A stretch of DNA of 64,000 nucleotides from Escherichia phage mistaenkt (MN850587.1); one strand, 5' to 3'; positions 45,339 to 50,632 are shown, numbered from the stretch's first letter. The notes: generated by a model not told the origin, from the sequence alone. Numbers and translations: made by a program.

Positions 45339-46235
45339 ATGTCACAAGCAGATGTAAGCTACAAAAATATTCTGAACCATGTTTTAACAGTTGGTGAGCA
45401 GCGTAAAACCCGAACTGGTTCTGTAATTTCAACGTTCTCACCTCCAGAGTTTCGTTTTGATATGCGTACTGGTTTCCCTTTACTGACCTCTAAACAGGTT
45501 CTGACCAGACAAGTTATCGGGGAAGCTTTATGGTTCTTGAACGGTGAGAATAAACTTGGTCATCTTCGCTATCGTACTTGGGGAGAAAACGATGGAGAGC
45601 GTTGGACAATCTGGACAAATGACTTTGAACGCTGGCTTAAAACAACCTATGCAAGTGAGCAAGATTGGTTAGATGATGCAGGTGGACGAATCTACGGTGT
45701 TCAGTGGAGAGCCTCAGAAGGTCATGGTGGCGTTACAGTTGACCAGCTAGACAATCTGATTACCAAGATGAAAAAGTCTCCTACAGACCGTTACATGCTG
45801 GTTAACGCTTGGAATGCTGCTGATATCTCAGCTAACACAATGGCATTACCACCTTGTCATGTACTTTTCCAGATTTACATCTCGAATACTGGTGAAGTGG
45901 ATTTAAAATGGTATCAACGTTCTGTAGACAGCTTTTTAGGTTTACCATTTAACATTGCATCTTATGGTTTTATCTTGGAAGTGCTTTGTAAGATGACTGG
46001 ATATACACCTCGTTACTTGATTGGTACTTTTGGTGATACTCAGATTTATCAGAACCATATGAATCAGGTATTCCAGCTTTTAGGTAATGAAGAGTTTCCT
46101 GCACCGAAGTTTGAGATTGTTCAAGATTTGAAATGTCTGGATGACCTCAAGCATATGACTGCAAGTGACTTTATCGGTGGTTTCAAAGATTATCGACATG
46201 CAGGGAAGATTGAAGCTCCCTTGTCAGTAGGTTGA
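45339..46235 (+). CDS. thyA: Thymidylate synthase
   Basis: Active-site block ALPPCHVLFQ (catalytic Cys). Confidence 0.9.
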   Translation: MSQADVSYKNILNHVLTVGEQRKTRTGSVISTFSPPEFRFDMRTGFPLLTSKQVLTRQVIGEALWFLNGENKLGHLRYRTWGENDGERWTIWTNDFERWLKTTYASEQDWLDDAGGRIYGVQWRASEGHGGVTVDQLDNLITKMKKSPTDRYMLVNAWNAADISANTMALPPCHVLFQIYISNTGEVDLKWYQRSVDSFLGLPFNIASYGFILEVLCKMTGYTPRYLIGTFGDTQIYQNHMNQVFQLLGNEEFPAPKFEIVQDLKCLDDLKHMTASDFIGGFKDYRHAGKIEAPLSVG

Positions 46236-46248
46236 TAGATACAAAAAA

Positions 46249-46268
46249 GGCTCCTTTTTACGGGAGCC
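46249..46268. terminator. Bidirectional rho-independent terminator between convergent operons
   Basis: GGCTCC-TTTTTACG-GGAGCC with T-runs on both strands. Confidence 0.75.
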
Positions 46269-46274
46269 TTAAAC

Positions 46275-46649
46275 TTATTTTTTCTTAGCATTTTGAGTGT
46301 TCTGTTCAGTGATTGCTTGCAAAGCCGATACAGACTGTGCTAGGTTATTAACACTGTCAGAGAATTTATCAAGGGTTTTGGTCAACTTGGCGTTTTCACC
46401 CTTTACGTTCTCTAGCTGAACCTTCTGGTTCTCCATGCCTAATTGCAGGAGTTTCATGTCAGACTGTAAATCACGAATAGCTGAATAGTTGCTTTTGTTG
46501 TAACTATCAAGCTGTTGTAACTTTGTCGAAACGGAAACTTCCTGCTTCCCACTAGACACCTGCATTGTAGTGTACATACCAATTACACTGAAGATACCCA
46601 CAACAATTGCACCAATATTATTTTTGAAAGCATCCTCTAACCATCTCAT
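46275..46649 (-). CDS. Membrane-anchored coiled-coil protein (124 aa); possible lysis or fibre-associated function
   Basis: TM segment IGAIVVGIFSVIGMY then a long heptad-like helix; last gene of the late operon. Confidence 0.5.
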   Translation of the reverse strand: MRWLEDAFKNNIGAIVVGIFSVIGMYTTMQVSSGKQEVSVSTKLQQLDSYNKSNYSAIRDLQSDMKLLQLGMENQKVQLENVKGENAKLTKTLDKFSDSVNNLAQSVSALQAITEQNTQNAKKK

Positions 46650-46843
46650 TCTTTCTCCCCTTTAAAGGCTTTTTCCAAGTTATTAACAAATTCATCATCA
46701 ATAGGCGTATCTGTCTTACTCGCAAGGTATCTTGCAAGTCTGAAGAAGGCTTTCTCAATCATGTATTCACTCAGAAGGGAAAGAACGAGTTTCCAGAGGA
46801 AGCTACCCAAGTTTTTTAAGAGGATTGCTAGGATAGTCGGCAT
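46646..46843 (-). CDS. Small hydrophobic protein (65 aa)
   Basis: Hydrophobic N-terminus ILAILLKNLGSFLWKLVLSLL; ATGA overlap with the downstream gene. Confidence 0.5.
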   Translation of the reverse strand: MPTILAILLKNLGSFLWKLVLSLLSEYMIEKAFFRLARYLASKTDTPIDDEFVNNLEKAFKGEKE

Positions 46844-46922: not shown

Positions 46923-49124
46923 TTACGCCGTTCTAACCCATGCCATCAATCTGATAAACAAGTTCACAACACTGAATGCTGAACCAGAACCTGTACCACC
47001 AGTGTTACCACTAACTGTGTGGGTGTGAGCACCAATACCAACTGTGTGAGCATGGTTACCAGCAGAAGCAGCAGAACCACTTACAGAGTGAGTATGAGCA
47101 CCAGTAGTGTTAGAGGTCTTCGTACCATAGTCAAAGCTACTCGTTGTAGCGGAGAAGCTGTGAGTGTGTGAAGGAATATGCCCTACAGATAATGTCACAG
47201 TGTCTGCACCACCAACTGACTTCACATCTGAACCATTCGCTGCACCGATTCTAACTGTTCTACCTACACCCTCATTCAGATACGTCCAAGTCATACCTGC
47301 AAGAGTTGTGTTAGGGTTCTGGTTAGTAGCAAACCATGTTACAATCCCAACTGGATAGACTTTCTTAAGGTCTGTTGAAGATGTAACAGCCGTAGCAATC
47401 TTCTGGTCAGTTTCTGCTTTGGTGTATGCACCAATTTCAGAAGGTGTTGGTTTCTGTGCTTCTGTATAAATCTTAGACCAATCTGCTTCAAAACCATAGC
47501 TATCCCTAGCCGACCTGTACCACATCCCACCATTTTTATAGTTGAATTTCAACTGAGCAGACGGTGTTGATGATGCACCCTGATACATATGGTAGACCAG
47601 TTGTGTTGAGCCACCAGTTGAAAATGTAACATTGTACAAACCTGTCTTGGCATTCCATGCTACGCCATCTCCACCATTCTGTTCAGTGGCATTGCCTGAT
47701 GAGCCAGCAAGCATAAATCTAGAGTTAGCTGCTGTCTGTGTGAAGTATCTCGCATCCAAGTTACCCCAATCAGAAGGTTTCACCTGTCCAGTAATCTGTA
47801 AAGATTTAGACAGAAGAATCTCATCAGACAAGTCAATTCTCGCACCAGTTAAGTAGTTATGGAAAGATGCAACCACAGAGCCATTTGTACCACAACCAAC
47901 ATACCACTTATTAGTGTTATCAGTGTTCTTTCCAACAATGTAAGAAGCATTGTTCTGGACTTTGCTGTAAATCCTTAAAGCTTCACCGTCAGACTGAATA
48001 TTTTGTTGAAGGGTGAATGTGTTAGCTTCATTCTTCTTAGCAAGGTTAGCATATGTACCAACCAACACATAACGAGAGTCAATGTTAGCCCAATCTGTAG
48101 GCTGAACCTGTCCAGTAATTGCAAGGCTCTTGTTCACTCTGACCATGTTATCAAGCAATACATAGGTATCATTTGAGATGTTTGTCAATACAACTGAGTT
48201 GCTACCATCTGCATAGTTACCTACAGCCCACTTCATAGAAGCATCTGTGTTCTGACCTTCAATGTAAAGTGCTTTACCAGTTGTCAAGTTCTTCAGGGTT
48301 AATCTTGCACCGTCACCAAGTAACGTTGTAGTCCCTCTGAAGGTGTTGTTTCCAGTAATCGTGTTAGCTGCTGCCAACTGAACAAATCTTTGGTCTGCTG
48401 CATCACGAGTATAGAATCTTGCATCGAAGTTTGCAAAGTCTGAAGGAACAACCTGTCCAGCAACTTGAAGCTGCTTGTTAATACCTACAGAACCAGTACC
48501 AAGAACAATATTAGTATTCTGTTTGGTGTTTGCAATAGTAACGTCAGAACCAGAACTCAAGTTACCAATTGTGAACCTTACAGCGTTTGCTGTATCACGA
48601 CCTTCATAATACAATGCAGCCGCAGCAGTGTTCTTCAAAGTCAAACCAGCATTATCTGTCTGGAAAATCTGACTTGCTGTAAAGGTATTTTGAGTTCCCT
48701 TGATAGCAAATCTTGCATCGTTCTCATCATTAGTTCTCATCCCAAGTTCATTGGGAGATGGCTTATTCAGAGTGTGATAAACAGTTGCACTTCTTGAAGC
48801 ATCTGCAATAGTCAGTTTAAGACCATTTGCATTAAGCTTGAAAGTTTTTGCAGTGTCACCGAAGACAATTTCGGAGTTACCTGTTGGGTCAAGTAAATCT
48901 TTTCCCCCATAGGTAAGCTTCACAATTCCTAAATTACCTGTCATGGTTCCACCAACTAATTGCAGAAATCTTTCCAGTCTAAATGATGCAAGGAAATCTG
49001 CATAAGTCATTCTACGGTCTTCATCACCTAGCATCTCAGTTCTTTTCTTAACTCTGACATGCAATAGGTCATCAGAACGAATCTCACTAATCGAGTTTAA
49101 TTCACTCAATTTAAATTCTGCCAT
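46923..49124 (-). CDS. Long tail fibre protein with His-x-His repeat tip
   Basis: 733 aa; C-terminal HTHSFS, HTHSVS, NHAHTV, GAHTHTVS repeats and conserved terminal motif shared with ORF 49167-50315. Confidence 0.8.
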   Translation of the reverse strand: MAEFKLSELNSISEIRSDDLLHVRVKKRTEMLGDEDRRMTYADFLASFRLERFLQLVGGTMTGNLGIVKLTYGGKDLLDPTGNSEIVFGDTAKTFKLNANGLKLTIADASRSATVYHTLNKPSPNELGMRTNDENDARFAIKGTQNTFTASQIFQTDNAGLTLKNTAAAALYYEGRDTANAVRFTIGNLSSGSDVTIANTKQNTNIVLGTGSVGINKQLQVAGQVVPSDFANFDARFYTRDAADQRFVQLAAANTITGNNTFRGTTTLLGDGARLTLKNLTTGKALYIEGQNTDASMKWAVGNYADGSNSVVLTNISNDTYVLLDNMVRVNKSLAITGQVQPTDWANIDSRYVLVGTYANLAKKNEANTFTLQQNIQSDGEALRIYSKVQNNASYIVGKNTDNTNKWYVGCGTNGSVVASFHNYLTGARIDLSDEILLSKSLQITGQVKPSDWGNLDARYFTQTAANSRFMLAGSSGNATEQNGGDGVAWNAKTGLYNVTFSTGGSTQLVYHMYQGASSTPSAQLKFNYKNGGMWYRSARDSYGFEADWSKIYTEAQKPTPSEIGAYTKAETDQKIATAVTSSTDLKKVYPVGIVTWFATNQNPNTTLAGMTWTYLNEGVGRTVRIGAANGSDVKSVGGADTVTLSVGHIPSHTHSFSATTSSFDYGTKTSNTTGAHTHSVSGSAASAGNHAHTVGIGAHTHTVSGNTGGTGSGSAFSVVNLFIRLMAWVRTA

Positions 49125-49142
49125 TATACAATCCTCTTAAAA

Positions 49143-49158
49143 GGGGCTAAAAAGCCCC
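49143..49158 (-). terminator. Hairpin between the two tail fibre genes
   Basis: GGGGCT-AAAA-AGCCCC; minus strand followed by TTTTAAGAGG. Confidence 0.5.
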
Positions 49159-49166
49159 TGTAATAA

Positions 49167-50315
49167 TCAAGCAGTTCTCTGCCATACATATAGAACAAAT
49201 GATGGCTGTTCAATGTTAAATGCCTGACCAGAACCAGTTGAGCCAGTTGTACCAGAGTGAGAGTGTTCACCTGCACCTGTAACAGTTACAGTAGCAGTAT
49301 GCGAGTGGCTACCAATTGATACAGAGTGGCTATGAGCACCAATCGCTACAGTATGAGTGTGCGCACCAATCGCTACAGTGTGCGTATGGTTGTTAGCGGT
49401 TGTCAGAGTGGCTCTTGGGTCATAGTCTGCACCAACTACTGAAAGTCCCGGATGACTCCCTGGGTCATAACCACGGTTAATCCACGTTGTCTGAGTGAAT
49501 CCAGCAGAACTCGTAGTTTTATTACCATAGTTAAATGATGATGTGGTCTTAGTACCATAATCAAATGTTGTAGTGCTTCTATTCCCATAGTCAAATGAAC
49601 TGATTGAAGCAGTTGCACCATGTGAGTGACCACCACCTGTAACGTACACTGAGTGAGTGTGAGCAGGGATGTTATTAGCTGTCAATGCAGCAGTCTGAGA
49701 ACCAAACGTAGAACCTGCTGGTCTCGAAGCACTATCATAGCCTACAAGTGCTCTACCTCTTGAAACTAGCTCCCAAGTACCTCCACAAATCAGGTAAGTA
49801 GATGGGTTAGCAGCATTCATAGACAAGTGGATAGTACCCACTGGATACGAAGCCTGAACAGCCCTGTATAGACTATTAACTGCTCTTGCTGTAGCATACT
49901 TATCAGCATCTTCATTATATGCGTTAGAGGCTAACCAGTTCTGAACATTACCCAAGCCAACTTGTGATTTAGTTGTATTGTGAGGGTTGTTCTTGTCATT
50001 AATGTGAGCCTGAATAAGTTGATTAACTTCATCAGAAGACATAATCTGTAAGTTCGCTCTTGCTTCAGCTACGTCAACGATATCTGATAAGTTATTTGCA
50101 GCGACAAGCTGTAAAGCGTTTAATACGTTACCTAACTCAACCTGAACCTTTGTAACACCGTGAGGGTTATTTCTCAAGGATGCGTGAGGGTCAAGTAATT
50201 GTTCAAGTGTACATCTTTTGTCTTCAATACCTTGTTTAAGGTGGAAGATATCACTTAGCTCAATTGGTAACGACGCTTGAGGCAAGGCACTAATTTGAAT
50301 TTCACCTACTGCCAT
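49167..50315 (-). CDS. Tail fibre protein paralogue with His-x-His repeat tip
   Basis: 382 aa; HTHSVYV, HSHGAT, HTHTVAIGAHTHTVAIGAHSHSVSIGSHSHTATV repeats; same terminal motif (GSGQAF ... WQRTA) as 46923-49124. Confidence 0.8.
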   Translation of the reverse strand: MAVGEIQISALPQASLPIELSDIFHLKQGIEDKRCTLEQLLDPHASLRNNPHGVTKVQVELGNVLNALQLVAANNLSDIVDVAEARANLQIMSSDEVNQLIQAHINDKNNPHNTTKSQVGLGNVQNWLASNAYNEDADKYATARAVNSLYRAVQASYPVGTIHLSMNAANPSTYLICGGTWELVSRGRALVGYDSASRPAGSTFGSQTAALTANNIPAHTHSVYVTGGGHSHGATASISSFDYGNRSTTTFDYGTKTTSSFNYGNKTTSSAGFTQTTWINRGYDPGSHPGLSVVGADYDPRATLTTANNHTHTVAIGAHTHTVAIGAHSHSVSIGSHSHTATVTVTGAGEHSHSGTTGSTGSGQAFNIEQPSFVLYVWQRTA

Positions 50316-50317
50316 TA

Positions 50318-50632
50318 TTAGCCTCCGATAAATTCATAAGTGTACTGATTAGTTGTGCTTGTTGGAGCAGTACCTGTCACGGTATTAATAAGGTTCCATC
50401 CAGCCGATACTAAATCAGGTTGCTCGGTAGCAAAGCTTCTTACTTCGCCTACAATAGCTGTTGTCCCATTTGCTCTTTCCAACAAATAGTTTAAAATATA
50501 GTTATACCATTGACGACCCATTGGTTCGCCACGAAGTAAACCTGTTGCCTGAATCTCAGGAGGTGGTAACACTTTTAACTGGTTACCATCAGCGTCTACA
50601 TCATCTGTAGCCCATCTTACTGCATCTGCCAT
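50318..50632 (-). CDS. Baseplate or tail fibre-associated protein (104 aa)
   Basis: Position between baseplate and fibre genes. Confidence 0.45.

Follow-up and report, generated by a model that had tools for sequence, protein, structure and literature searches.

Members of the Ounavirinae target lipopolysaccharide (LPS), and phage Bas63 needs an intact LPS core (PMC8594841). Bas63 (Escherichia phage JohannRWettstein, genus Felixounavirus) was described by cryo-electron microscopy (Sci Adv 2025, PMC12609058): its short tail fibre (STF) and its long tail fibre (LTF) both carry a tip like that of T4 gp37, made of a collar, a needle of His-x-His motifs (HxH) and a head. The needle contains seven HxH in the former fibre and six in the latter. 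In T4 gp37 itself, the collar domain D10 comprises residues 811-881 plus 1010-1026, and D11 is inserted in D10 with a stem (882-931 plus 960-1009) and a tip (932-959); the needle contains seven iron atoms held by histidines, and residues of the tip are essential for the binding of LPS and OmpC (Islam et al. 2019, PMC6957217). Here we analyze the two tail fibre genes found at positions 46923-50315 of a stretch of 64,000 nt from Escherichia phage mistaenkt (MN850587.1), which we call the window. With good confidence, we conclude that these genes encode the STF (382 aa) and the LTF (733 aa) of an Ounavirinae myophage and that the LTF has undergone a 147-bp loss that deleted its tip.

Mistaenkt is assigned to Andersonviridae, Ounavirinae, Mooglevirus in the NCBI taxonomy. 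The phage was obtained from Danish wastewater, forms plaques on E. coli K-12 MG1655, and was sequenced on a NextSeq with a 300-cycle kit and assembled by CLC and SPAdes (PMC7552041). A previous reading of the window, made from the sequence only, had placed two tail fibre paralogues in this region, and two open reading frames (ORFs) are located exactly there on the minus strand. Their products are exact matches of the mistaenkt proteins QHR67971.1 (733 aa) and QHR67972.1 (382 aa). The fibre region presents 92-97% DNA identity to Salmonella phage PC79-13 and to Escherichia phages SUSP2 and phiSUSP1, where the annotation of both genes reads tail fibre or tail protein, and the STF is identical to WQY99579.1 of phage EP1. 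The STF gene is placed directly after the gene of the LTF platform, upstream of which two ORFs of 285 aa and 489 aa match baseplate (wedge) families (Pfam, PHROG) and equal wedge 1 and wedge 2 of Bas63 in length. Because gene order and wedge lengths are as in Bas63, the 382-aa protein is the STF by position and the 733-aa protein is the LTF. The two genes and the elements of the LTF tip are the following:

46923-49124, minus strand: LTF gene, 733 aa; phrog_4277 (E = 0); orthologue by position of Bas63 gp27
49167-50315, minus strand: STF gene, 382 aa; phrog_2097, tail fibre (1.2e-123); orthologue by position of Bas63 gp26
47053-47074, minus strand: deletion junction with the single remaining copy of CTGCTGCTTCTGCTGGTAACCA, encoding part of SAASAGNH
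47175-47369, minus strand: LTF collar, N-terminal part (residues 586-650); Gp10_C at 587-732; pLDDT (predicted local distance difference test score) of 87-95 in AlphaFold2 (AF2)
47010-47174, minus strand: shortened LTF needle (residues 651-705), with two outgoing and two returning HxH and no head
46926-46991, minus strand: LTF C-terminal motif GSGSAFSVVNLFIRLMAWVRTA, the collar-closing strand, kept in LTF homologues and in the short collar-needle proteins of prophages

Probable loss of the tip subdomain in the LTF of mistaenkt

The LTF of the window is 97% identical to the LTF of SUSP2 (782 aa), from which it differs by the absence of exactly 49 aa, AASAGNHNHSISWIGQNSTHYSGGGGGKVGVGPGYTDAGGAHTHTISGT, a block that all its close relatives retain. 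Alignments to SUSP2 and PC79-13 indicate that this corresponds to 147 bp at the DNA level. In SUSP2, the block missing from the window is flanked by a perfect 22-nt direct repeat, CTGCTGCTTCTGCTGGTAACCA, whose two copies are found 147 nt apart; the corresponding repeat of PC79-13 is 17 nt long. Profile alignment with hhalign equates the missing block with HxH 929, the tip 932-959 and HxH 966 of T4 gp37, a region that has been shown to touch the receptors in T4. The LTF lacks the tip (head) subdomain in its entirety and the His box on either side of it (the last one on the outgoing strand and the first one on the returning strand), and HxH 2 and 3 are separated only by the 11-residue linker SVSGSAASAGN, compared to 31-45 aa in relatives. 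The STF, in contrast, keeps its head within a 77-aa segment that also includes FDYG units. The HxH array that had been attributed to the LTF from the sequence is indeed present, but its shortening by a 49-aa deletion that includes the tip subdomain had been overlooked.

The distribution of this deletion was determined on LTF homologues clustered at 90% identity, and the counts given here cover the 120 best-scoring clusters. Six HxH were found in 117 of these clusters and seven in one; only the window LTF, whose cluster has a single member, and one other protein (P0092) present four. The latter is encoded on a 63-kb Felixounavirus contig of SRR6743845 from Logan and is 62% identical to the window LTF. 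Relative to its closest full-length relative, ULIM3 (96% DNA identity), it has a 150-bp deletion at the equivalent repeats, which in ULIM3 form a 29-nt exact repeat with copies 150 nt apart. This event is independent and took place in another lineage. Both headless genomes, mistaenkt and the SRR6743845 contig, keep an intact STF. All the other homologues examined have kept the head insert. Where the head could be measured, its length ranges from 31 to 45 aa for LTFs and from 31 to 77 aa for STFs; the short collar-needle proteins of prophages, including those with four HxH, present a head of ~20 aa or more by inspection. An exact search of IMG/VR viral contigs with the junction of the window returned 0 matches, and no colinear match was obtained by megablast when the junction region was compared with 50,697 phage records. 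Searching with the LTF tip alone returned only proteins of at most 263 aa and no further headless LTFs. The LTF tip deletion is rare, most likely real and new here.

The 147-bp loss may have occurred by unequal recombination or replication slippage between the 22-nt repeats, which encode the His-box linker SAASAGNH. The resulting LTF would present a shorter, blunt needle with two outgoing and two returning HxH and a cap made of SVSGSAASAGN. Such a headless LTF can probably still assemble but without its normal receptor-contact surface. If the binding surface of the LTF is lost, E. coli K-12, the rough-LPS host used for isolation, would be infected by way of the intact STF.

Alternative readings: assembly artefact or selected state

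It could be argued that the gap is an assembly artefact and that the true LTF is a normal protein of 782 aa with six HxH and a head, in which case there would be nothing unusual about it. The gap is located exactly between perfect 22-nt direct repeats, CLC assembled the genome from short reads, and the allele, whose 90% cluster has a single member, is absent from other phage records and from IMG/VR contigs. However, a 22-nt repeat with unique flanks is easily crossed by 150-nt reads, so the loop should resolve and a collapse in mistaenkt is unlikely; SPAdes assemblies were also made. In addition, an equivalent deletion was found independently in a k = 31 Logan assembly, and the repeat of its closest full-length relative is only 29 nt. 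De Bruijn graph assembly should react to repeats of 31 nt or more by ending the contig, not by passing over the loop. With the k = 31 used for Logan contigs, in which all the 31-mers of an accession are distinct by construction (PMC12424806), a repeat of 29 nt cannot cause a collapse. We consider an artefact quite unlikely. Alternatively, the deletion could be real and the headless LTF functional and selected: the Gly/Ser/Ala cap or the sides of the needle would bind another ligand, or a phage without the head would fare better on hosts with rough LPS, for instance because it avoids unproductive binding. The same structural outcome was reached twice in different lineages, the reading frame and the remaining His boxes are intact, mistaenkt forms plaques on K-12 (PMC7552041), and needles with four HxH occur naturally in the tail proteins of prophages. 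Yet every natural needle with four HxH is still headed, the deletion is restricted to just two of the 120 clusters, and tip residues are essential for binding in T4 (PMC6957217). Moreover, the repeats are in frame and recombination between them is automatically in frame, so the intact ORF is uninformative on selection. A selected state appears unlikely.

Several points weigh against a real, tip-deleting loss in a fibre of the proposed structure and role. The mistaenkt assembly rests on Illumina reads of 150 nt processed with CLC and SPAdes; the looping-out of a 125-bp segment between the 22-nt repeats is an unlikely error, but CLC is able to choose a small word size. The repeat length used for the Logan contig was taken from ULIM3, the closest full-length relative, and the true length in the parent of this variant may differ. 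The confidence of the AF2 model of the LTF tip is lowest at the new apex (pLDDT 61-64), and fold searches with this model gave no significant match. Metal binding, trimer formation and receptor binding are predicted from homology. The reliance of adsorption to rough K-12 on the STF is likewise a prediction, made from the probable loss of the LTF surface. Finally, the roles of the two Ounavirinae fibres and their exact receptors are described as unresolved in the literature (PMC8594841). We nevertheless retain a genuine deletion of the LTF tip as the reading that these data favor.

Shared architecture of the two fibre tips

Both fibres end in an array of HxH followed by GSG(Q/S)AF...W(Q/V)RTA, as had been read from the sequence, and the strings HTHSVS and GAHTHTV quoted at that time are present. 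Four HxH were found in the LTF (residues 653, 677, 691 and 700) and seven in the STF (residues 219, 230, 310, 319, 328, 337 and 351). In 20,000 shuffles of its sequence, the LTF yielded 0.21 HxH on average; shuffling of the STF yielded 1.10 on average and 6 at most. The C-terminal sequences are GSGSAFSVVNLFIRLMAWVRTA for the LTF and GSGQAFNIEQPSFVLYVWQRTA for the STF. The similarity of the two C-termini proved significant when tested by alignment. BLASTP of LTF 586-733 against STF 153-382 yielded E = 3e-9 with ~25% identity. The Smith-Waterman score of the whole tips was 181, relative to 60.2 +/- 8.9 for shuffled sequences (0/2000 shuffles reach 181); the 28 residues after the last HxH scored 68 relative to 18.5 +/- 3.9 (0/5000 shuffles reach 68), and the N-terminal part of the collar scored 54 relative to 24.4 +/- 4.8 (2/5000 shuffles).

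Searches against the gp37 tip (2xgf) and hhalign bore out the identification of both proteins as tail fibres and the homology of their HxH arrays with the metal-binding needle of T4 gp37. Residues 145-352 of the STF match residues 17-229 of 2xgf (phmmer, 1.7e-12), and the STF also matches the C-terminal domain of T4 gp10; the LTF matches 2xgf at 3.7e-9 (phmmer). The profile of LTF-tip homologues aligned to T4 gp37 811-1026 with 98.9% probability (hhalign, E = 1.2e-17). In T4 gp37, three HxH (883, 915 and 929) precede the turn of the chain and four (966, 980, 989 and 998) follow it; the corresponding numbers on the outgoing and returning strands are 2 + 5 in the STF and 2 + 2 in the LTF. Pfam Gp10_C was detected in both fibres, at STF 154-248 (1.9e-18) and at LTF 587-732. 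The LTF match covers profile positions 3-139 of 139 and, since it spans nearly the whole profile, the HxH array lies inside the collar domain. 

The C-terminal motif is conserved across the homologues of both fibres (~60 for the STF and 120 for the LTF) as well as in short proteins of prophages. It is modeled by AF2 in the LTF tip as a strand (E138-141, pLDDT ~85). The T4 proteins end in NIAFNYIVRLA (gp37), ITVYRWIRIA (gp10), VFYHFERTA (gp11) and ISLNYIIKVKE (gp12), and these endings have a common pattern with those of the window fibres: a hydrophobic strand, an aromatic residue and R-x-A. On this evidence, GSGxAF...WxRTA is a family-wide signature of the gp10/gp11/gp12/gp37 collar fold, equivalent to gp37 1010-1026.

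These results suggest how the tips are built. Each fibre ends in a receptor-binding tip of the gp37 type, consisting of a collar of the gp10_C fold with an inserted beta-needle. The chain goes outward, turns at the apex and returns, and its last 22 residues (GSGxAF...WxRTA) re-enter and close the collar, which makes them part of the mature fibre. At each HxH of a trimer, six histidines, two per chain, would surround one axial metal ion (Fe2+ in T4), which predicts seven metal sites in the STF and four in the LTF. That the fibres form trimers, bind metal ions on their axis and contact LPS through the head is expected by analogy with T4 and Bas63.

The possibility had also been raised that the HxH region serves as an intramolecular chaperone, removed by cleavage once the fibre has assembled. 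Phage fibres and spikes often carry a chaperone domain at their C-terminus, but neither Peptidase_S74 nor any other chaperone domain was detected in either fibre (Pfam, PHROG). The C-terminal motif aligns with gp37 1010-1026, which is kept in the mature T4 fibre, and the homologous region of T4 gp37 is present to its last residue in the crystal, where it forms the collar and the needle. In Bas63, the chain was seen returning to the collar (PMC12609058). We consider cleavage extremely unlikely and reject it based on the missing domain and the homology to a retained structure.

Short stand-alone proteins made of a collar and an HxH needle were also observed in the genomes of Enterobacterales (P0131-P0172). 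These proteins are ~180-260 aa long, contain 3-6 HxH, end in ...KLMGWYR(S/T)A and are annotated as 'phage baseplate protein' or 'phage tail protein'. The genomes that encode them are of Erwinia, Providencia, Morganella, Serratia, Klebsiella and Photorhabdus.

Domain architecture of the fibres

The remaining features of the two fibres and the adjoining platform gene are the following:

49668-49859, minus strand: STF collar, N-terminal part (residues 153-216); Gp10_C, T4 gp10 (2fkk) and gp37 (2xgf)
49251-49667, minus strand: STF needle and head (residues 217-355); HxH positions and 2xgf residues 17-229 (E = 1.7e-12)
49170-49235, minus strand: STF C-terminal motif GSGQAFNIEQPSFVLYVWQRTA, the collar-closing strand, kept across STF homologues and similar to the C-termini of T4 gp10, gp11 and gp37
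47709-48707, minus strand: LTF shaft, three modules of the gp37_trimer type (~residues 140-472); PF20744 (8.6e-52)
47373-47705, minus strand: LTF module similar to Mu S/P2 H (residues 474-584); gp37_C (9.6e-24) and 8ju3 (2.1e-25)
50318-50632, minus strand: LTF-platform gene, 104 aa; PDB 9ndy chain S (gp025; E = 8e-52) and phrog_4141

The needle of the STF is composed, in order, of two outgoing HxH, three FDYG-type units, the head and five returning HxH. For the full STF, the AF2 monomer has a mean pLDDT of 60.5 and only the collar is confident (pLDDT 75-89); the monomer model of the LTF tip has an overall pLDDT of 80.9. Besides Gp10_C, Pfam identifies gp37_trimer (three stretches), gp37_C and a Phage_fiber repeat in the LTF. 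Its shaft presents DNA repeats spaced by 324 nt and a weak match to the tip of T7 gp17 (4a0t). Residues 474-580 match the Mu tail fibre S (PDB 8ju3), and the module 474-584 yields tblastn matches in Mu, P2 and related phages. Since the modules of the LTF match T7-like, Mu/P2-like and T4-like fibres, this protein mixes modules of three fibre types. We observed that the module 474-584 is 45-57% identical to part of the tail fibres of Mu (S/S'), P2 (H) and their relatives, which are temperate myophages.

Duplication and cassette exchange

The shared C-termini and divergent shafts had been taken as a sign of duplication and recombination between the two genes. This does not hold for the genes of the window, which are ~25% identical in this region and share at most 22 nt, but exchange is apparent at the level of the family. 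The longest DNA common to the STF and LTF of the window is a stretch of 22 nt at 91% identity that consists of His-box codons, and the head of the STF has no counterpart in the window LTF or in its full-length relatives. A recent duplication between the two window genes is rejected, as no shared DNA exceeds 22 nt. It could be argued that the window tips arose by a recent duplication or that the STF and LTF genes of mistaenkt are still recombining: the tips have the same architecture and the same C-terminal motif, a relative shares 278 bp at 100% identity between its STF and LTF, and some head cassettes are common to STF and LTF contexts elsewhere. However, the ~25% identity of the window tips, the short and imperfect DNA stretch that they share, the lack of a counterpart to the STF head and the presence of the C-terminal motif in the whole T4 collar-fold family all stand against this origin, which we consider very unlikely.

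The relative in question is a metagenomic scaffold (L008, ENA ERZ28588151), on which nt 748-1025 of the STF (L008:3501-4676) are the same as nt 2164-2441 of the LTF (L008:4723-7254). This tract covers the distal needle and the head and points to gene conversion or duplication between the fibre genes, although it is possibly an assembly chimera. The fibre cassette of this scaffold resembles the tip of T4 gp37, and a cassette very similar to this tip is present in some STF and LTF tips of the Ounavirinae (the L008 fibres and proteins P0173, P0174, P0284 and P0287). This suggests that tips may have been exchanged between Straboviridae and Ounavirinae fibres. Head cassettes are also common to STF and LTF contexts, with 100% identity over 31 aa between P0259 and P0157 and 94% between P0284 and P0173. 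In two close relatives (P0013 and P0015), the head cassette is swapped and the flanks are nearly identical. The LTF of EP1 (P0023, 845 aa) is near-identical to the window LTF over its first ~350 aa and its tip, but its central shaft has been replaced (alignment columns ~351-600); the STF of this phage is the same as that of the window. The borders of these cassettes fall at the His-box repeat GAHTHSVSGxAAxAGxH. The coincidence of deletion end points and cassette borders is clear evidence for the His-box repeats as the recombination joints of this fibre family. The deletion mechanism proposed above, with short conserved motifs as joints, has a precedent in the plasticity of T-even adhesins (Tetart et al. 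1996 and 1998, as these studies are listed and used in PMC3157838).

As a separate observation, the STF of phage CHB7 appears as two proteins of 239 aa and 202 aa (P0007 and P0185), which may point to either a frameshift or an error in sequencing. The tip of this STF contains nine HxH and an LTF-style cassette (GAHTHSVSGTAATAGNH...).

Neighboring genes and other observations

No gp38-like or gp57A-like fibre chaperone gene adjoining the fibre genes was found in the Pfam and PHROG scans. On the 3' side of the LTF gene, the minus strand of 46275-46843 carries ORFs of 65 aa (phrog_402) and 124 aa (phrog_4038), whose matches were limited to PHROGs without a known function and included no family of tail fibre assembly, this search for fibre chaperones covering the genes next to the fibres. 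The 124-aa ORF encodes a hydrophobic N-terminal segment followed by a coiled coil, and one or the other of the two ORFs is labelled 'putative holin' in relatives. A G+C-rich hairpin with T runs on both strands (46247-46270) looks like a bidirectional terminator and is located between the convergent genes of thymidylate synthase (plus strand, ending at 46235) and the 124-aa ORF (minus strand, ending at 46275). The sign of the GC skew flips near 36 kb and again near 46 kb, which matches the change in coding strand. Scans for tRNAs and Rfam families gave no match in window positions 1-64000; mistaenkt has been reported with 22 tRNAs (PMC7552041), yet the tRNA scan of the window was empty.

Implications

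Needle tips with HxH on both fibres are real and were already published for the Felix-O1-like group (PMC12609058). The observation of these tips alone adds little, as they were described structurally in 2025 and the proteins were already annotated as tail fibres. The deletion, in turn, makes mistaenkt a natural test of whether the tip subdomain of the Ounavirinae LTF is needed: should the deletion be real, K-12 is infected by a plaque-forming phage whose LTF is decapitated. The His-box repeats, which mark both deletion ends and cassette borders, could be useful to design or predict host range in therapeutic and diagnostic phages, and the cassettes are common to STF, LTF and T4-type gp37. More tentatively, the His-box repeats around the LTF tip could be a recombination hotspot that repeatedly yields viable headless LTFs. 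The deletion would then be a reversible or recurrent polymorphism that switches off or changes the receptor contact of the LTF while the STF carries the infection, and the same repeats would mediate the exchange of cassettes between STF, LTF and T-even gp37. This broader scenario is possible but doubtful.

Comparison with known systems

The LTFs of SUSP2, PC79-13 and phiSUSP1 (782 aa) are the most similar to that of the window: they are ~97% identical over aligned residues, and their collar, outer His boxes and C-terminus are identical to it. They differ by the extra 49-aa block AASAGNHNHSISWIGQNSTHYSGGGGGKVGVGPGYTDAGGAHTHTISGT, which has no counterpart in the window LTF. Bas63 is also a member of the Ounavirinae and presents the same gene order (wedge 2, wedge 1, LTF platform, STF, LTF), an STF with seven HxH and an LTF with a repeated shaft, as compared by published description and not residue by residue. 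The window phage belongs to another genus (Mooglevirus/Suspvirus group), and its LTF contains four HxH rather than six and no head subdomain.

T4 gp37 and the window fibres have in common FDYGTK units, His boxes of the GAHTHTV type, a needle inserted in the collar and a chain that closes with a hydrophobic strand ending in R-x-A; T4 gp37 and the STF both have seven HxH. However, T4 gp37 makes up the distal portion of a fibre built from four proteins and requires gp38 and gp57A (PMC6957217), whereas the window encodes one polypeptide per fibre and no gp38-like gene adjoins them. The LTF further departs from T4 gp37 in having no equivalents of HxH 929, the tip 932-959 and HxH 966 (hhalign). The collar domains of T4 gp10, gp11 and gp12 are similar to both window fibres in their strand motif (IQPYITVYRWIRIA, PTVFYHFERTA and WNISLNYIIKVKE, respectively), and Pfam Gp10_C matches both fibres.

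The T-even adhesins are comparable in that short conserved motifs flank variable receptor-binding segments and serve as crossover points in duplications, deletions and swaps. The T4 events attributed to Tetart et al. were reportedly duplications that widened the host range. In mistaenkt, the event would instead be a deletion that removed the tip, known here from sequence only.

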